Assembly (NCBI GenBank): GCA_963703305.1
Contig: OY969808.1
Coordinates: forward strand, 2,903,422 to 2,967,421
Length of the DNA: 64,000 nucleotides
Source of the DNA: Vulcanimicrobiota bacterium
GTDB lineage: Bacteria > Vulcanimicrobiota > Vulcanimicrobiia > Vulcanimicrobiales > Vulcanimicrobiaceae
Direction of reading: 5' to 3'
Shown: piece by piece, positions 29,297-37,757 of the stretch
Numbering within the stretch: the first letter of the stretch is position 1
Layout: the number at the start of each line of letters is the position of its first letter
The notes under the pieces: generated by a model
Databases searched by the model: none
Seen by the model: the letters and a program-made list of their open reading frames with translations, nothing else
Told to the model about the DNA's origin: nothing
Made by a program: the position numbers and the translations under genes

Positions 29297-30775
29297 ATGT
29301 CAGCACAAACACAAGTAGACGTCGGCGGAATCCTTCGCCCACAAGGCCGCCTCGACGCGACGCCGCTCGCGCCCTATCGGGGCACGCTCGACGACCGCAG
29401 CGCCGCGCATTTGCTGCGCCGCGCCGGTTTCGGCGGATCCGAGACCGAGATCAAACGTTATACCGGCATGCCGGTCGATACCGCGGTCGAATCGCTCGTG
29501 CGCTTCCCGTCGACCGCCGCGCTGCCGCCGCCGTCCAACGTCTTCGACCCGACCGACGTTCTTCGCCAATATACGCCGCAAGATTTTCGGGCGCTCGACA
29601 AGGCGACGAAGCGCGGCATCGAGCAGAGCCTGCGGGAGCAGACGCAGGCTTCGGTGTTGTCGATGCAGGTGTGGTGGCTGAACCGCATGCTGGACACGCC
29701 GGCGCCGCTGCAAGAGAAGATGGCGTTCTACTTCCACGGTCATTTTACGTCCGCCGCCGTGCAAAAAGGCGCTGCAGCCACGCTGACCTATCAGCAGAAT
29801 CAACTCTTTCGCAATTACGCCCTTGGGAATCTGCGCGAACTCACGCGCGCGGTTTCGCAAGATCCGGCGATGCTGATCTATCTGGACAATGCGGCCAACG
29901 TCGCCTCACATCCAAACGAGAACTTCGCACGCGAGCTGATGGAGCTGTACACGCTCGGCGTCGACCACTACACCGAGAAGGACGTTCGCGAATCGGCGCG
30001 CGCTTGGACCGGTTGGCAATATTCGCGCTTCACGGGTGTGGCTCGCTTCAATCCGCGCCTCCACGACGACGGTGTGAAGACGTTCCTCGGCCAAACCGGA
30101 AACTTCAACGGCGACGATATCGTCAACATCATCTTCGCGCAGCCGCAGTGCGCCCGCTTTTTTGCAGGCAGCCTGCTGAGCTACTTCGTGTACAACGATC
30201 CCGAGCCGGAGCTTATCGACGCCGTCGCCGCGCTGCTGCGCAAGCACGACTACGAACTGGCCCCGGTGATGTCGGCGATCTTTCGCAGCGACGTATTCTA
30301 CTCCGACCGCGCCTACCGCGCGCTGGTAAAGACCCCGGTCGAGTTCGTGGTCGGCACGTACAAGACGCTCGGGCTGTCGCAGTTCGACGTGACGATCGTG
30401 CCGCAGCTGCGGCAAATGGGTCAGATACTTTTCTCGCCGCCCAACGTCGCCGGCTGGCCCGGCGGCGCAAACTGGCTGACCAGCGACATGATGATCGCTC
30501 GGCAGAACTTCCTCGAGTCGTCCGTTAATTCGCAAAACGTAACGGCTTCCTCGTGGCTCGGAACCATGCCGATGAAGGCGAAGACCGTAACGAAAACGCT
30601 GGTTGAGACGATTCTGCAGGGCGATGCGTCGCCGGCTGCGATCGCGAAGCTGGACGCGCTGCTCGGCGGTGCCGGCAGTGCCGCGCTTGCTGCTTTCGGT
30701 CCAGAAAACTATGGCGAACGCGTGAGCGGCGCCGCCTACCTCGCCATGGCCGCGCCGGCCTTCCAACTGAATTAA
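29297..30775 (+). CDS. DUF1800 family protein
   Basis: 492 aa. ..AAHLLRRAGFGGS.. and ..ELMELYTLGVDHYTEKDV.. are motifs typical of DUF1800. Paired with DUF1501 as usual. Confidence 0.8.
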   Translation: MSAQTQVDVGGILRPQGRLDATPLAPYRGTLDDRSAAHLLRRAGFGGSETEIKRYTGMPVDTAVESLVRFPSTAALPPPSNVFDPTDVLRQYTPQDFRALDKATKRGIEQSLREQTQASVLSMQVWWLNRMLDTPAPLQEKMAFYFHGHFTSAAVQKGAAATLTYQQNQLFRNYALGNLRELTRAVSQDPAMLIYLDNAANVASHPNENFARELMELYTLGVDHYTEKDVRESARAWTGWQYSRFTGVARFNPRLHDDGVKTFLGQTGNFNGDDIVNIIFAQPQCARFFAGSLLSYFVYNDPEPELIDAVAALLRKHDYELAPVMSAIFRSDVFYSDRAYRALVKTPVEFVVGTYKTLGLSQFDVTIVPQLRQMGQILFSPPNVAGWPGGANWLTSDMMIARQNFLESSVNSQNVTASSWLGTMPMKAKTVTKTLVETILQGDASPAAIAKLDALLGGAGSAALAAFGPENYGERVSGAAYLAMAAPAFQLN

Positions 30776-30778
30776 AAC

Positions 30779-32005
30779 ATGTCGATGAAACGCCTGAACT
30801 TCCTACTCGGCAGCGTCTCCGGCCTCGCGGTCGTCGCGAATACCGAGCATCTCTTCGCCAAAGCGCTGGCGCAAGCGCCGCTCGCGGGATTGCCCGGCGG
30901 CAGCGATCGCGTGCTGATTCTGTTGAATCTGCAGGGCGGCAACGACGGGTTGAATACCGTCGTCCCGCACGGCAACCAGCGTTACTACCAGCTGCGTCCG
31001 AATCTTGCGATCGGGCCAAACGACGTGCTGCGGATCGACGACCAACTTGGGTTCAACCCCATGATGAAATCGTTCAAGGCCATGTACGATAAGGGCGAGG
31101 TCGCCATCGTTCAAGGCGTGGGCTATCCGAATCCCGACCTCTCGCATTTTCGCTCGACGGAGATCTGGCAGACGGCGTCGCCCGATCGCTACTTGCACAG
31201 CGGCTGGCTCGGACGCTATCTGGATGAAGCAAACCTGCCGGCCAACAACCTCTTCAACGGCGTCGCGCTCTCGCAGCTCGTGCCTGAAGCGCTCGACGCC
31301 TCGAACGTCGACGTTCCGGCGATTGCAAATCTGGGCGCGTACGGGCTCACGATCAACGGCAACAACGGTACGCGCAACGCGTTCTCAACGCTCGTGCACG
31401 ATCGGACCGTGCCCTTCAAGTCGCCGTACCTCGCGCGCGTGATGGAGATCGAAGACCACGCCCAACGGGGTTCGCAAGAGTTGCCGAAGCTGATCGCCGG
31501 GTATAAAACGCAAGCCGCGTATCCGGCCACGCCGATCGGCCGCAGCCTCGCGTTGGCCGCGCAGATCGTCGGCAGCAATCTGGGCACGAAAGTGATCTAC
31601 GTCGAGCACGGATCGTTCGACACCCACATCAGTCAGAAGGCAACGCACGACAAGCTCATCGAGCAGTTCTCCGATGCAATCGCCGCGTTCTACGACGACC
31701 TCGCCGCGCACGGCAACGACAAGCGCGTGCTGACCATGACCTTTAGCGAGTTCGGCCGGCGCGCTGCCGAGAACGGCAGCAACGGCACGGATCACGGTGA
31801 AGCCTCGCCGCTCTTCCTGATCGGCGGCGGCGTCAAGGGCGGCGTCTACGGAGACAATCCGGTCATTGGCCAAGAAGCGTTCGGCAACGTCAAATACACG
31901 ATCGACTTCCGCAACGTCTACGCCACCATCCTGGAACGCTGGCTGAACCGCCCCTCCGTCCCAATCCTGTCCGGCTCGTTCCCAATACTGCCCGTTCTCG
32001 GGTAA
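30779..32005 (+). CDS. DUF1501 family (sulfatase-like) protein
   Basis: 408 aa. ..LNLQGGNDGLNTVVP.. and ..FSEFGRRAAENGSNGTDHG.. are DUF1501 signatures. Confidence 0.8.
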   Translation: MSMKRLNFLLGSVSGLAVVANTEHLFAKALAQAPLAGLPGGSDRVLILLNLQGGNDGLNTVVPHGNQRYYQLRPNLAIGPNDVLRIDDQLGFNPMMKSFKAMYDKGEVAIVQGVGYPNPDLSHFRSTEIWQTASPDRYLHSGWLGRYLDEANLPANNLFNGVALSQLVPEALDASNVDVPAIANLGAYGLTINGNNGTRNAFSTLVHDRTVPFKSPYLARVMEIEDHAQRGSQELPKLIAGYKTQAAYPATPIGRSLALAAQIVGSNLGTKVIYVEHGSFDTHISQKATHDKLIEQFSDAIAAFYDDLAAHGNDKRVLTMTFSEFGRRAAENGSNGTDHGEASPLFLIGGGVKGGVYGDNPVIGQEAFGNVKYTIDFRNVYATILERWLNRPSVPILSGSFPILPVLG

Positions 32006-33558: not shown

Positions 33559-33563
33559 GCAGT

Positions 33564-33802
33564 GTCATCCTGAGCGTAGCGAACGCAGTGAGCGTAGTCG
33601 AAGGACCGCGGAAAAGGATGGCTCGCCACGGCGAGCCCGCTTTTAACGGAACCGCGGCATTGCTCTTGTCATCCTGAGCGTAGCGAACGAAGTGAGCGTA
33701 GTCGAAGGACCGCGACAAAGGATGGCTCGCCACAGCGAGCCTCCTTTGATTGATGGAATCATGGCATTGCCCTTGTCATCCTGAGCGTAGTCGAAGGACC
33801 GC
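33564..33802. repeat. REP-like ~105-bp tandem units (two full plus one partial copy), core GTCATCCTGAGCGTAGCGAACGxAGTGAGCGTAGTCGAAGGACCGCG
   Basis: Copies start at 33564, 33668 and 33775. Copies 1 and 2 are near identical over ~74 nt, including GGATGGCTCGCCACxGCGAGCC. Copy 3 lacks the internal duplication. Confidence 0.75.
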
Positions 33803-34104
33803 TACACTGGTTTCGCTCGATCCAGACCCCTCGCAAACTTAGAAGCCATCGCCCAATCATCGCGGATGAGGGCGATCTTCTTGCGACGAGACCAACGTTT
33901 CAACTGCTTTTCCCAATCGATCGCCTGACGGACGTCGTTGAACGCCCACGCTTTCGCAAGCACGACTGGGCGACGGAAATGAGTGTAGCAATCTGGATCC
34001 TAGCCGTCGTTGTGCTGCCCCACTCTTCGGTCGGCATCGCGCGTCACGCCGACGTAGAACGAGAGGTCCGCGCAGAGGAGCAGGTAGACGTAGTAGGTGT
34101 TCAC
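33803..34104 (-). pseudogene. GIY-YIG nuclease family gene interrupted by an in-frame TAG
   Basis: My reverse translation: (GTG)NTYYVYLLLCADLSFYVGVTRDADRRVGQHNDG*DPDCYTHFRRPVVLAKAWAFNDVRQAIDWEKQLKRWSRRKKIALIRDDW.. The TAG is at 34000..34002 and the frame is otherwise intact. GIY-YIG motifs YYVY..YVG..R..H. Confidence 0.65.
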
Positions 34105-34148
34105 GCCGTGCTTCTGCTTCCGGATGGGTGGATGGCTAGAGTTGGGTA

Positions 34149-34192
34149 GCGGTCCTTCGACTACGGCGCTGCGCGCCTACGCTCAGGATGAC
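34149..34192. repeat. inverted copy of the REP-like core
   Basis: GCGGTCCTTCGACTAC..GCTCAGGATGAC is the reverse complement of the GTCATCCTGAGCGTAG..GTCGAAGGACCGC core. Together with the copy at 33775..33802 it brackets the GIY-YIG gene. Confidence 0.65.
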
Positions 34193-34199
34193 AAGAGCG

Positions 34200-34405
34200 G
34201 CGCCCTTCGTCTCCAAAACCCTGCAGCGCCCTTCGTTTCCCAAACCCTGCAGCGCCCTTCGTTTCCCAAACCCTGCAGCGCCCTTCGTTTCCCAAACCCT
34301 GCAGCGCCCTTCGTTTCCCAAACCCTGCAGCGCCCTTCGTTTCTCAAACCCTGCAGCGCCCTTCGTTTCCCAAACCCTGCAGCGCCCATCGTTCTCCAAG
34401 CGAAC
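34200..34405. repeat. 26-bp direct tandem repeat, about 8 units (GCGCCCTTCGTTTCCCAAACCCTGCA)
   Basis: CTGCAG recurs at an exact 26-nt period (34221, 34247, 34273, 34299, 34325, 34351, 34377). The first and last units are degenerate. The period is not a multiple of 3. The array abuts the multicopper oxidase stop. Confidence 0.9.
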
Positions 34406-36019
34406 TTAGATTGCTCGGATTGTGGCCATCATGCCGGCGTCTTCGTGGTCGAGGATGTGGCAGTGGAAGACGAAGAGACCTTTGATGATGGGGTCGCGGA
34501 AGTCGACGATCACTTGGAGATGTCCGGGCGTCCACGAGCCGTTCTTGCCGGGAATGCGGTGCGGGACGACGACGCTGTCGGCCCAGTGCGGGTGCGCGAC
34601 GCCGACGCCGTTGATGGATTGCACGAAGAAGTGCACTTGATGCATGTGGAAGTCGTGGACCTCCTCGGTGATGTTCACGACTTGCCACTCTTCGATCGTT
34701 CCGGTGCGAACGGTGAACAGCGGCGGCGCCGACGGGTTGTACGGCGAGCCGTTGATGTACATCGCATTTGCATCCTCGTTCAGGACCACGGTACGAAACG
34801 CTGCAGACGGCGGGAACGATGACGACAGCGGATTGACGGGAAGCGGGGTGCCGACGCGCAGATGCGGCAGCCTCGCGATTCCGGCGCGATGCGAAGCGCC
34901 GGGGCCGGGCTTGAGGGTGGCGAGCAGCGTATCCGGGTCCGGGTCACCGGTCGGTCCGGAGTTGTAGCATTTCGTGTGGAACGCCGTCGGCGAGCCGGTG
35001 CCGGTTACCACGAACTCGGCACGCGCGGCCGGCGGCAGCACGAAGTCGGGAACGATCTGCGTTGCAGCAGTACCGGGATACGCGTCGAGCGCGACGCCGT
35101 CGATCGCCACCAGCTCGAGGGAGGCGCCGTCGACCGCTAAGTCCATGTTCTTATGGCCCGTCGCGTTGACGACGCGAAAAAATTGCGATTCGCCGGCGGC
35201 GATTCTGATGCTCGGGCTCACCACGCCGTTGACGGTCACCGTGAGCCCAGGGTCCGGTCCGCACGGGTTGGTGTTACTATCGACGTCGTTGGGACGCATC
35301 ACCGGCATCGCGTCGCTTTCGCCGCCCATCGACATGTGCATCGGCGCGCCGTCGTTGTGGCGCAGCGAGAGCGCCTCCGGCGCGGACGATGCGACGTCGC
35401 GAACGATCATCAGGCGCTCTTTCATCGTCGCGAGCGCGGGAAGATGCTTCTGGAGACCGTTTACGACGATGGCACCGGACATGCCGCCCAAACCAACTTG
35501 ATAATCGGTTTGCCCGTGAACGTGCGGATGGTACCAGTAGAGCCCCGGTTCGGCGTTCTTCGGCAGCTTCACGACATAATGCAGCGAACCGCCCGGCATC
35601 GCCAGCGTCGTTATCACGTCGTCGGATGGTGCTTCGGGCGAAACCTCGAGGCCGTGAAAGTGCAGGTTCATGTCGCTGGCCATACCGCCGGCCGCCGGCA
35701 GCGCATTGTGCACGTCGACGATAATCGTGTCTCCCGGGTTCACGCGGATCGTCGGAGCGACGCCCTTTTGCCCGTCGTACAGAAACGCCGGCAGCGCGGT
35801 CGCCGGATCGATGATGGTGCTGAGTACGACCGTTGCGACGCGATGCACGGAGTCGACCTCAGGCGGCTCGGGCAGCGGAGCGCCCGGCCCGAGCGCGCCT
35901 TGACGCGCGAGCTCGGCGACGGTCGGCAGAAGGTTCTGCGTTGGCGGCGTGCCGCCCGAACCTCCGCACGCGTTGAGTGCGAGCGAGCCGATCAGAATGG
36001 TCCAAAGCCGTTTCGTCAT
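34406..36019 (-). CDS. three-domain multicopper oxidase (laccase/CueO-like), lipoprotein
   Basis: 537 aa. Lipobox LALNAC. Copper-binding motifs HFHGLE, WYHPHVHG, HDFHMHQVHF, HCHILDHEDAGMM. Confidence 0.9.
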   Translation of the reverse strand: MTKRLWTILIGSLALNACGGSGGTPPTQNLLPTVAELARQGALGPGAPLPEPPEVDSVHRVATVVLSTIIDPATALPAFLYDGQKGVAPTIRVNPGDTIIVDVHNALPAAGGMASDMNLHFHGLEVSPEAPSDDVITTLAMPGGSLHYVVKLPKNAEPGLYWYHPHVHGQTDYQVGLGGMSGAIVVNGLQKHLPALATMKERLMIVRDVASSAPEALSLRHNDGAPMHMSMGGESDAMPVMRPNDVDSNTNPCGPDPGLTVTVNGVVSPSIRIAAGESQFFRVVNATGHKNMDLAVDGASLELVAIDGVALDAYPGTAATQIVPDFVLPPAARAEFVVTGTGSPTAFHTKCYNSGPTGDPDPDTLLATLKPGPGASHRAGIARLPHLRVGTPLPVNPLSSSFPPSAAFRTVVLNEDANAMYINGSPYNPSAPPLFTVRTGTIEEWQVVNITEEVHDFHMHQVHFFVQSINGVGVAHPHWADSVVVPHRIPGKNGSWTPGHLQVIVDFRDPIIKGLFVFHCHILDHEDAGMMATIRAI

Positions 36020-36032
36020 GTCGTTACGTCTC

Positions 36033-37154
36033 TTAGTAAGCGAAGAGCAGGCCGAGCGCGAGCTGGTATTGCTTTGCGGAATAGGTGCCTTCGAACGTCA
36101 GGCGCGCGCGATCGACCGGACGAATCACGAGGTCGAGCGTATCCTGATACGTGCGCAGGTTGAATGGGTCGTAGACGTTGTCGTAGCGGCCGTAGAGCGC
36201 GATACCGCTGTTGAACTGCCACCCGGCCTGCACGAATCCGCCCGACGACAACGCACCGTTGCCGAACCCGTAGGCGCTCGAATCGTTGCCGGTTTGAATG
36301 ATTCCGACCGAGCTGAACTTCCCTTTTTCGTAGCCCAAGCCATACGCTTGCCGGTAAAAATTATCGACGACCGGCGAGAAGTTCTGCTGGCCCTGATAGC
36401 GATAGACGTACGCGGTGACGTCGTTGCCGATCGTCTTCGACGCCGTCGCCATGAAGTCCAAACCCGAGATGGGAATACCGCTCCCGCGCGTGTAGGCTTC
36501 GAGCGTGTCGAAGTGCGCTTCGAAGCCGTGCCGGTCGTCGGTGTACGAGAGATCCGAACCGATCTCCGGATTGAAGAAGTTGAACGCGTTGCTCGCAACG
36601 ACTTGGCTGTACAGCAAATAGCCGGAGAGCGTCGGCCGCTGCGTTTCCGGATCCACCGGCAGCGGCAGCGTGAACTGGCCGAACTTGGCGTGGAACGTGG
36701 GGCCGATCGGGTCGTCGGCGCGAGCGTACTTGTCGAAGTTCACCCACATGTCGCGCGGCTGCCCCGGGAGGCCATCGTCGACGATGTACTGCTCCAAATA
36801 GTACGAGGTATTGCGGCCGATCGAACCGGCCGAGAGCACTTCGATTTCGTCGACCAGCAGCTTCGGCAGCGGCTGGGGGGCGCCGCCGGGTTCGTCCGTG
36901 TCGCCGGCACCCGAGCTGTTATAGGTGATTTCCGTCTTCACGGCGATCGGCAGCGTCCCGCGAGCCCCGCCCGGGAGCCGGAAGCCGTGCCTCAGGAAGT
37001 ATTTTCCGAAGGCGTTGAGGTTCGGGACGGTCGTGTGGCACTGCTGGCACGAGAAGCCGTACCGGTGCGCAAAAATCGGCAAAGCAGAGGCCCGAGCACT
37101 CAGAGCGGCGGCCAGGGAAACCGAAATTATGAGTGTGAGGCTCCAAGTGCGCAA
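36033..37154 (-). CDS. Cyc2-like fused monoheme cytochrome c / outer-membrane beta-barrel porin
   Basis: 373 aa. Signal peptide. A single CQQCH heme motif right after the cleavage region (..FAHRYGFSCQQCHTTVPNLNAFGKYF..). Alternating-hydrophobicity beta-strand body. The C-terminus ..LLFAY is typical of outer-membrane barrels. 13 nt upstream of the MCO gene. Confidence 0.6.
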   Translation of the reverse strand: MRTWSLTLIISVSLAAALSARASALPIFAHRYGFSCQQCHTTVPNLNAFGKYFLRHGFRLPGGARGTLPIAVKTEITYNSSGAGDTDEPGGAPQPLPKLLVDEIEVLSAGSIGRNTSYYLEQYIVDDGLPGQPRDMWVNFDKYARADDPIGPTFHAKFGQFTLPLPVDPETQRPTLSGYLLYSQVVASNAFNFFNPEIGSDLSYTDDRHGFEAHFDTLEAYTRGSGIPISGLDFMATASKTIGNDVTAYVYRYQGQQNFSPVVDNFYRQAYGLGYEKGKFSSVGIIQTGNDSSAYGFGNGALSSGGFVQAGWQFNSGIALYGRYDNVYDPFNLRTYQDTLDLVIRPVDRARLTFEGTYSAKQYQLALGLLFAY

Positions 37155-37343
37155 AGGACCCCCTAAAACGAAAGTTAGGAGCGCCTAATATCTCATTTAG
37201 GCGACCTTTACGCACCGACTTCTCTCGCAGGTCAACTTTCTGAAAGCGTGAATGAATCGCGCTTCAGCACCCTCGGTTTGTTCGGCTCGGGACCTGGGAA
37301 TTGATAAAACACTGATGGTTTATAATCCGCGGGAAGCCTTCGG

Positions 37344-37757
37344 GTGAGAGCCTCCCACGAGCGCGTCTTGTCGCTCGGCGCCCGCGATAGCGGACTGCCG
37401 CCTAAAGGCACGCCCAAGAATTACTTGATGGCGTGGCTGCTCGTAATGCTCGCCGAACATAATTTGCACGGTTACGAAATCACCAAGGAACTCAACGAGA
37501 AGTTCGACCTGACGACCGACGCCGGAACCGTCTACCGCGCGCTGCGCCAGCTGGAGCGCGACGGATACATCTCGTCCTGGTGGGATCCGAAAGAACAGGG
37601 GCCGGCTCGCCGCTTCTACGCCCTCACGGATGCCGGAGATGCGGCACTGCGGTTGTGGAGCGAAGTGCTCAACCAATACCGCGCCAACCTCGAGACGTTT
37701 TTCGCACTGTACGACGCCCGGGGTGAGACCGCGTCGGTGAGGCAGCGCGGCGCCTGA
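37344..37757 (+). CDS. PadR family transcriptional regulator
   Basis: 137 aa. ..WLLVMLAEHNLHGYEITKELNEKF..GTVYRALRQLERDGYISSWWD..RRFYALTDAG.. is the PadR winged helix. Confidence 0.85.
   Translation: MRASHERVLSLGARDSGLPPKGTPKNYLMAWLLVMLAEHNLHGYEITKELNEKFDLTTDAGTVYRALRQLERDGYISSWWDPKEQGPARRFYALTDAGDAALRLWSEVLNQYRANLETFFALYDARGETASVRQRGA

Follow-up and report, generated by a model that had tools for sequence, protein, structure and literature searches.

This study concerns a small gene cluster in a 64,000-nucleotide (nt) stretch of DNA from a Vulcanimicrobiota bacterium (contig OY969808.1 of assembly GCA_963703305.1, positions 2,903,422 to 2,967,421; hereafter the window), which is part of a genome assembled as a single contig of 4.54 Mb and estimated to be 95% complete. 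Named homologs assign the source organism to Eremiobacterota (Baltobacteraceae / Ca. Tumulicola). A gene for a 373-residue protein that resembles Cyc2, the fused cytochrome-porin of Fe(II)-oxidizing bacteria, is followed on the same strand by a gene for a multicopper oxidase (MCO), and a PadR-family gene diverges upstream, Table 1. An initial annotation, made from the letters of the DNA, had placed these three open reading frames (ORFs), had counted 13 nt between the first two and had reported a signal peptide, a single CXXCH motif near the mature N-terminus and an aromatic C-terminal end in the 373-residue protein, together with a lipobox and all four copper motifs in a three-domain MCO. Each of these features is present as described, positions, strands and the exact 13-nt gap included. 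No convincing terminator was found between the cyc2-like gene and the MCO gene.

Table 1. Features of the locus in window coordinates, with the evidence on which each assignment is based
Feature	Position	Strand	Description and basis
cyc2-like gene	36033..37154	-	373 amino acids (aa), predicted fused monohaem cytochrome and 16-strand porin, TTG start; ORF, homologs, AlphaFold2 (AF2) model, hidden Markov models (HMMs)
Signal peptide of cyc2-like protein	37083..37154	-	residues 1-24, cut after ASA; predicted from sequence
Cytochrome motif A24-LPIFAHRY-GFS-C36QQCH40-TTV-P44NL46	37017..37085	-	alignment of 44 sequences; spacing compared with Ralstonia
16-strand beta-barrel	36039..36947	-	residues 70-372, C-terminal F-A-Y; DSSP strands of the model
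Conserved loop between strands 5 and 6 (GQFTLPLPVDPETxRPT...NxFxFF)	36558..36680	-	at the position of porin loop L3; conservation and model
Intergenic gap, cyc2-like stop to MCO ATG	36020..36032	-	13 nt; sequence TAA gagacgtaacgac ATG
Three-domain MCO	34406..36019	-	537 aa, lipoprotein Cys18, Met axial ligand of type 1 (T1) copper; Pfam
Palindrome TTAGG-AGCG-CCTAA	37175..37188	.	candidate operator in the cyc2-like promoter; motif counts over orthologous loci
Imperfect second palindrome copy TTAGGGGGTCCTTT	37153..37166	-	overlaps ribosome-binding site and start codon; consensus of 49 cyc2-like sites
PadR-family regulator	37344..37757	+	137 aa, divergent from cyc2-like; PF03551; heads a padR-MBL-GNAT operon (to 38963)

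The 373-residue protein begins with MRTWSLTLIISVSLAAALSARASA, which is predicted to be removed, leaving LPIFAHRYGFSCQQCHTTVPNLNAFGKYF at the mature N-terminus, and it ends in LLFAY. Only two Cys are present in the entire chain, both in C36-QQ-C39-H40 some 11 residues past the predicted cut, so that the CXXCH is necessarily single. A hydrophobic helix (residues 2-19 in the AF2 model) falls within the predicted signal peptide, and the cut between ASA and LP aligns with ARA and LP in a Caballeronia homolog and with AQA and NP in one from Ralstonia. Keffer et al. 2021 (PMC8406198) define Cyc2 by a signal peptide, one CXXCH, an upstream AXPXFAR[Q/K][T/Y] and a downstream PXL motif, a porin of 16 strands that resembles OprO/OprP and a minimum length of 365 aa. 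In the window protein, as in the Ralstonia and Caballeronia homologs, the first A of AXPXFA is the -1 residue of the cut, the spacing from this motif to CXXCH (3 residues) is the same as in the Ralstonia, Mariprofundus and Acidithiobacillus proteins, and PXL is found 4 residues past CXXCH as H40-TTV-P44-N-L46. The length of 373 aa lies above the limit, with many members of the clade to which the protein belongs, at 337-364 aa, falling below it. An alignment of 44 of the 463 homologs, with identities down to 41%, shows no variation at C36, C39, H40, P44 and L46; its consensus at the N-terminus reads ALPVFAHRYGLSCQxCHTTVPxLNAFG, and the chains terminate in F-A-Y.

The AF2 model, computed from the 44-sequence alignment (pLDDT, the predicted score in the local distance difference test, 82; predicted template modeling score, pTM, 0.80), has exactly 16 strands behind a short N-terminal segment. 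The segment carries the haem motif and is modeled with low confidence, which is to be expected when haem is left out of the model. Foldseek searches of the PDB return the 16-strand porins Omp32, OmpF/OmpK36, PorB and OprP (2o4v), with E values of 4e-11 to 1e-8 for Omp32, OmpF and OprP and template modeling (TM) scores of 0.55-0.61, OprP being at 0.61. The initial annotation had allowed that the barrel might prove to be of the PcoB/CopB copper-resistance type; Pfam gives no CopB/PcoB match and the fold is that of a general porin instead. The most conserved stretch besides the haem motif is the non-strand loop between strands 5 and 6 (pLDDT 81-92), with G159, F161, L163, P164, E170, R173, T175, Y179, Q184, N189, F191, F194 and G199 invariant in its region, and by analogy with porin architecture this loop probably forms the pore constriction. 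Both a cytochrome c assembly protein and Omp85/BamA are encoded in the genome, so that a haem-loaded outer-membrane barrel is feasible. According to the model, then, the protein is an outer-membrane 16-strand porin with a predicted c-type haem on its N-terminal CXXCH segment. A sequence search of the PDB with the family profile gave a lone match, of the CxxC region to a redoxin at E 0.03, which was set aside as chance.

In order to establish the relationship to Cyc2 we have used, in place of blastp at 1e-5 or the FeGenie HMM, tblastn together with family HMMs in both the forward and the reverse direction. An HMM of the window family, scored with Z = 1e6, matches the Cyc2 proteins of Mariprofundus (1.2e-14) and Acidithiobacillus (6.5e-9), and aligns end to end with a clade of Cyc2-type proteins of ~390 aa in which Melioribacteraceae, Caldithrix and Gemmatimonadota are represented. 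Conversely, HMMs of four Cyc2 clades from outside Eremiobacterota, run against the 26,691 ORFs of the genome, match three paralogs, the window protein (3.5e-10 to 8e-23) among them, and nothing else; the HMM of an Acidobacteriota/Nitrospirota clade aligns residues 8-327. A comparison by hhalign with a Burkholderiales Cyc2-like profile gives 98% probability with roughly the first 100 columns aligned, and homology of the barrel is therefore established by way of the intermediate clades. An unbiased profile search of 1.84 billion representatives produced 3,732 matches at E <= 0.001, and a degenerate DNA motif pattern located 119 loci in named genomes of many phyla, all of which encode a Cyc2-type protein. 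Matching plasmid genes annotated 'cytochrome C' were found with tblastn in Ralstonia and Caballeronia (E 1e-7); their products carry ANPIFARQTGLNCASCHTVYPEL and ALPAFARQTGLACVACHVSFPEL, with spacing identical to that of the window motif. On plasmid pSBC1_3 of Caballeronia sp. SBC1 such a gene, with a canonical motif and annotated only 'cytochrome C', lies between genes for a HiPIP and a dihaem c-type cytochrome. Pfam and NCBIfam, searched at E up to 1, return no family for the 373-residue protein, which is uninformative as to membership because neither library has a Cyc2 model.

The protein is thus very likely a divergent member of the Cyc2 superfamily with a fused cytochrome-porin architecture. 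It is similar in size to the Cyc2 proteins of Acidithiobacillus ferrooxidans, Mariprofundus ferrooxydans (Cyc2PV-1) and Ghiorsea bivora (389 aa), and shares with them a signal peptide, a lone CXXCH some 10 residues past the mature N-terminus, AXPXFA...Y and PXL motifs at equal spacing and an OprP-like 16-strand porin. The assignment of a Cyc2 architecture in the initial annotation accordingly stands as regards the profile link in both directions, the fold and the haem motif, and the worry that no Cyc2 profile match would be found is dispelled by matches that reach Mariprofundus and Acidithiobacillus; what does not hold is the literal Cyc2 motif (FAHRY rather than FAR[Q/K][T/Y]). Because that motif fails in all three paralogs of this genome we class the protein as divergent Cyc2-like and not as canonical Cyc2. 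In contrast to the characterized Cyc2 proteins it is known here from sequence and model, its motif variant (FAHRY, with FAQRY and FAQAY in the paralogs) would be discarded by the published screen, and many of its clade lie under the 365-aa FeGenie cut-off.

In a quick maximum-likelihood tree, to be read with caution given its long branches, the clade of the window protein contains Eremiobacterota (NCBI name Vulcanimicrobiota) only, with an approximate likelihood-ratio (SH-aLRT) support of 97, and groups with Mariprofundus in the 'FARKY' half of the family, the 'FARQT' clade that holds Acidithiobacillus and Burkholderiales being separate. The FAHRY-type deviation holds across the whole clade, and the window subfamily is present in 145 of the 251 genomes of the phylum and in 45 of 87 genera. 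Each of the three paralogs adjoins one or more genes for copper proteins. The second (C1:2386347-2390449, outside the window; 377 aa, FAQRY) lies downstream of two lipoproteins, one of them fused to a SCO1/SenC domain; both are putative blue-copper proteins, to judge from an H...C..H....M pattern and weak pseudoazurin matches (E 0.05-0.7), and genes for an OmpR-type response regulator and a histidine kinase come next. The third (C1:2876405-2877993, likewise outside; 380 aa, FAQAY, lacking an aromatic C-terminus) overlaps by 4 nt an upstream gene for a 149-aa Cupredoxin_1/COX2-like protein whose site HCSVMCGAGHADM resembles a CuA site. Elsewhere the cyc2-like module is found in frame behind a chemoreceptor (HAMP and MCPsignal domains) in two proteins of ~1,040 aa (P0247, P0253), and two others of 600-652 aa (P0288, P0312) have one or two class I cytochrome c domains after it.

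The copper protein at the window locus is the MCO, which matches Cu-oxidase_3, Cu-oxidase and Cu-oxidase_2, each above the Pfam cut-off, and contains the copper-ligand motifs HFHG, WYHPH, HDFHMHQVHF and HCHILDHEDAGM. These are kept, as HFHG, WYHPH, HxFHxHQxHF and HCHIxDHEDxGMM, in all 19 cyc2-linked MCO orthologs, as is the lipoprotein Cys (LALNAC in the window MCO). The nearest solved relatives are the Thermus thermophilus MCO (2xu9, E 7e-36), Campylobacter McoC and E. coli CueO, which by sequence puts the enzyme in the CueO/Thermus metallo-oxidase group and not among the phenol laccases. Its signal is a lipobox with K-R instead of the R-R of the twin-arginine signals of CueO and PcoA, and the Met-rich segment that these enzymes have over the T1 site is lacking. 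In a survey of 60 loci from 59 genomes of the phylum an MCO of the window type is found within 4 kb of the cyc2-like gene at 18 loci, and at 17 of the 60 it is directly downstream on the same strand, in genomes that have about six MCO genes each. Identity among the cyc2-like proteins of the paired loci ranges over 37-72%, and the order cyc2-like then MCO occurs in at least three genomic contexts, with loci P0002, P0009 (two MCOs) and P0033 representing three unrelated ones; no MCO was found beside the cyc2-like gene at loci P0040, P0058, P0075, P0090 and P0114. The pairing of the two genes to which the initial annotation had drawn attention therefore recurs, and the MCO is a real but optional partner of the cyc2-like gene. 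That the two proteins are functionally coupled is reasonably probable. A second frequent neighbor is a gene for a YceI-like periplasmic protein (PF04264, 116-123 bits), directly downstream of cyc2-like at no fewer than 17 of the 60 loci (L159, L166, L171-L173, L188, L189, L191-L194, L201-L203, L205-L207), some of which are ordered cyc2-like, YceI, MCO. This count is a lower bound because greedy ORF calling is crude and noisy in these high-GC loci, 14 of the 60 being without a clean call.

Beyond the MCO stop codon, and abutting it, lies a tandem array of ~8-9 copies of a 26-nt unit GCAGCGCCCTTCGTTTCCCAAACCCT (34197-34399), which would therefore sit in the 3' untranslated region of the operon and whose unit has no other occurrence in the 4.54-Mb genome. 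Repetitive extragenic palindrome (REP)-like units of ~104 nt, GC-rich hairpins with inverted partners, occupy 33563-33810 and 34146-34198 between an amino-acid permease gene and the MCO gene, their core TGTCATCCTGAGCGTAG being present 101 times genome-wide. A DUF1800/DUF1501 gene pair at 29297-32005 flanks the locus, and relatives have it in the same place even if they lack the MCO.

The cyc2-like promoter contains a palindrome, TTAGG-N4-CCTAA; of 74 orthologous loci, 53 carry it at 22-40 nt upstream from the start, with fixed arms and a variable spacer. In promoters of the form TTGACA-N17/18-TAnnAT (L160, L189, L193, L202) it exactly fills the spacer between the -35 and -10 boxes, which is the position of a repressor, and a second copy with the consensus t.AGG.g.gCcT follows the first by ~8-9 nt. 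A repressor that binds the palindrome probably sets expression. The genome contains three exact sites (1.9 are expected by chance). The second is 33 nt upstream of a gene (C1:1219678-1221549; L208:2679-4550, minus strand) for a secreted two-domain MCO of 623 aa with a ZIP-like membrane domain, which we refer to as MCO-ZIP; this fusion is found in 45 of 81 genomes of the family, and in 20 other genomes the ortholog has the palindrome ahead of it 18 times, one mismatch being allowed. The neighbors of MCO-ZIP (HutD, PPK2 and an extracytoplasmic-function (ECF)-type sigma factor) give no functional clue. The third site is flanked by a TetR gene and an HTH-RibBA gene; the palindrome is upstream of none of 20 RibBA orthologs, and with 1.9 sites expected genome-wide we take it to be a chance occurrence and reject a regulon that includes riboflavin synthesis or control by TetR. 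The HTH-RibBA protein itself (C1:3823871-3825283; L209:1872-3284), DHBP synthase and GTP cyclohydrolase II with an N-terminal Cro/C1-type helix-turn-helix (HTH) domain, is kept as a fusion in 60 of 61 genomes of the family, and a conserved palindrome of its own round the -35 box (TTGACA-nnTGTnAA; L237-L256) suggests autoregulation.

It is doubtful that the regulator in question is the divergent PadR. The protein is a clear family member (PF03551, 72.8 bits against a cut-off of 27; the NCBIfam PhaQ equivalog scores 103 against 139), although translation may in truth begin at the ATG at 37428 since orthologs have 109-134 aa. A dedicated role would fit the divergent padR-MBL-GNAT arrangement, kept at loci P0002, P0040, P0075, P0090 and L048 down to 46% cyc2-like identity, and the presence of the palindrome at all nine loci with an adjacent PadR. 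However, the palindrome is also found at 44 of the 65 loci without one and at MCO-ZIP genes, so that PadR is not specifically implicated, PadR heads an operon of its own, and the PadR operator, ATGT-N8-ACAT, is dissimilar to the palindrome. The adjacency may simply reflect inherited gene order.

The reading that we favor, at a probability of about one half for the whole, is that the cyc2-like protein oxidizes Fe(II) in the cell envelope with the MCO as its electron acceptor or as a co-oxidase. Gene adjacency, the copper neighbors of all three paralogs and the common promoter element together suggest a route from haem to O2 by way of copper centers. A reduced metal ion in solution, most likely Fe2+, would give up an electron to the haem inside the pore or at its mouth, as has been shown for Cyc2PV-1 and for Cyc2 of A. 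ferrooxidans, and the lipoprotein MCO of this operon, tethered in the periplasm, would be the carrier that follows, electrons passing from the haem to the T1 copper and on to the trinuclear cluster, where O2 would be reduced to water. Alternatively, or in addition, the MCO might oxidize Fe(II) or Cu(I) that enters or leaks through the pore. Such a chain would amount to a short Fe(II):O2 module, wired by copper and limited to the outer envelope, with the same operator element marking a second copper-oxidase gene, MCO-ZIP. That Fe(II) is the substrate and that electrons also flow from haem to MCO is, taken jointly, a tentative proposal. Met-ligated T1 coppers have potentials of ~+400-500 mV. With +208 mV for the Cyc2 haem of strain PV-1 (PMC8406198) the redox order would be downhill. 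The role may be detoxification or iron handling, and need not be energy conservation; the spread of the protein in presumed heterotrophs and possible control by low iron make the former at least as likely as lithotrophy.

Two known systems bear comparison with the locus. In A. ferrooxidans the partner of Cyc2 is rusticyanin, and a cupredoxin-fold partner is thus common to both, whereas the window partner is a three-domain MCO and not Cyc1, rusticyanin or an aa3/cbb3 oxidase. In PcoAB/CopAB an outer-membrane beta-barrel gene adjoins a gene for a periplasmic CueO-like MCO, as here, and He et al. 2017 (PMC5566968) have put forward a 'porin-periplasmic MCO' hypothesis for PcoAB in which Fe(II) or Cu(I) is oxidized in the envelope. 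Unlike in PcoAB/CopAB, the gene order is reversed at the window locus, the MCO is a lipoprotein that lacks the classical twin-arginine signal, and the barrel is unrelated to PcoB, with 16 strands and a predicted covalent haem site. The initial annotation had set the locus apart from both the copA-copB order and the rus operon; the reversed order and the absence of Cyc1 and rusticyanin as partners bear this out.

A number of observations weigh against envelope Fe(II) oxidation by a haem-MCO pair. The likeness to characterized Cyc2 has its limits: the window motif is A-L-P-I-F-A-H-R-Y, with H for R and R for Q/K of the published AXPXFAR[Q/K][T/Y], and in the matches to the Mariprofundus and Acidithiobacillus proteins, which represent the biochemically studied lineages, the cytochrome region alone is aligned, similarity of the barrel being undetectable by sequence. 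Numerous Cyc2 homologs are found in organisms without known iron oxidation (Keffer et al., PMC8406198), and the occurrence of the window subfamily in ~58% of Eremiobacterota genomes, mostly of presumed heterotrophs, argues against dedicated lithotrophy. As for the partner, 42 of the 60 surveyed loci have no window-type MCO, from which it follows that the porin-cytochrome works without one, and such an MCO is present at only one of the 119 Cyc2-type loci across many phyla, that one being of the FAHRY type. Finally, were the palindrome to bind an IdeR-type iron-dependent repressor, the genes would be on at low iron, which suits iron acquisition better than it does Fe(II) oxidation for the sake of energy or detoxification.

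Iron acquisition is indeed the most serious of the other explanations, if in our view an unlikely one. The haem-porin would admit Fe2+ or reduce external Fe(III), and periplasmic MCOs of a regulon turned on at low iron would oxidize Fe2+ for hand-over to a permease, in the manner of the yeast oxidase-permease pair Fet3-Ftr1. Wide presence in heterotrophic soil genomes suits such a housekeeping role, and the palindrome links cyc2-like to an MCO fused to a ZIP-like membrane domain, although the ZIP match, at 30.9 bits, is under the Pfam cut-off of 35.1. The TTAGG and CCTAA arms, 4 bp apart, amount to one dimer footprint of the IdeR/DmdR1 iron box TTAGGTTAGGCTAACCTAA, and like the IdeR/DtxR/DmdR1 element the palindrome overlaps the core promoter, at the repressor position described above, in a genome that encodes a DtxR-family repressor (C1:~999768). 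Against this, the element is 14 bp only, with 12 of the 19 positions of the full box matched by eye and the flanks different, and a classical 19-bp IdeR regulon is rejected because match counts in the genome equal those of shuffled controls. No siderophore, TonB-receptor, Feo or Efe genes are found near the locus. The reading has in its favor, too, that the Pseudomonas aeruginosa MCO is cited in PMC5566968 as a ferroxidase that serves iron uptake.

Copper homeostasis, in which an outer-membrane channel and a periplasmic cuprous oxidase like those of PcoAB/CopAB would achieve Cu(I) oxidation and copper export, we consider improbable. The nearest characterized relatives of the MCO (CueO, the Thermus enzyme and McoC) are cuprous oxidases, and a Met-rich insert MHMSMGGESDAMPVM lies between its domains 1 and 2; the insert is confined to the window copy, being missing from the 18 other linked MCOs, and for this reason it was rejected as a sign of cuprous oxidase function. 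The cupredoxins and the SCO1 copper-chaperone domain beside the paralogs suit electron transfer and copper loading equally. Moreover, a channel for copper alone would have no use for an invariant haem, the barrel has no CopB/PcoB homology, and genes of the CopC/D, CusF, P-type ATPase, CueR or CopRS type are not found in the operon.

Similarly improbable is that the two genes are uncoupled neighbors, the cyc2-like protein passing electrons to soluble cytochromes c or cupredoxins encoded elsewhere while the MCO acts on a substrate of its own (Mn(II), phenolics or Cu(I)): absence of the MCO from most loci, the seven Cytochrome_CBB3-type domains and two haem-copper oxidases of the genome as possible acceptors, the class I cytochrome c fusions and the frequent response of PadR regulators to phenolics all speak for it, but same-strand adjacency at 17 of 60 loci despite ~6 MCO genes per genome, recurrence of the pair in unrelated contexts, the cis-element common to a second MCO gene and the grouping of the MCO with metallo-oxidases rather than phenol laccases speak against.

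Returning to envelope Fe(II) oxidation, a bolder version, to which we assign a low probability, would have the Cyc2 haem-porin rewired in Eremiobacterota, with copper proteins in place of cytochromes c, and would put it with MCO-ZIP in a metal-responsive regulon under one operator. The porin haem would then donate straight to the MCO, the two proteins acting as an Fe(II):O2 oxidoreductase confined to the outer envelope, and the regulon as a whole would parallel in bacteria the oxidase-permease logic of Fet3-Ftr1, with entry through an outer-membrane haem pore. The searchable literature yielded no description of an electron route from an outer-membrane haem through copper centers to O2, of a Cyc2-type haem porin paired with an MCO or YceI, or of the motif variant (FAHRY etc.) and the palindrome operator, and the palindrome common to the cyc2-like and MCO-ZIP promoters is new here. 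Cyc2-like genes have been noted by BLAST/FeGenie in Eremiobacterota metagenome-assembled genomes (MAGs), and iron oxidation predicted (Grettenberger & Hamilton 2021, PMC8357290; Metallomics 2026, PMC13594681). These MAGs are of the same phylum and family (Baltobacteraceae) as the window subfamily, and their matches may belong to another subfamily; the portions of the two papers accessible to us deal with presence and absence alone and do not describe the motif variant, paralog structure, MCO/YceI partners or operator.

Cyc2 is the main genetic marker by which iron oxidizers are called in metagenomes, and the window clade is present in over half of the genomes of a soil phylum that is abundant and has hardly any cultured members. 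Since its motif variants (FAHRY, FAQRY and FAQAY) and the lengths of many members, below the cut-off, depart from the published definitions, motif and length screens could reject the clade, which bears on how the recent reports of iron-oxidizing Eremiobacterota are to be read. The system is small, comprising two genes, and is amenable to the E. coli expression method used for Cyc2PV-1. If the operator is iron-responsive, the 'iron oxidation' calls made for the phylum may reflect iron acquisition or homeostasis, which would shift their biogeochemical interpretation.

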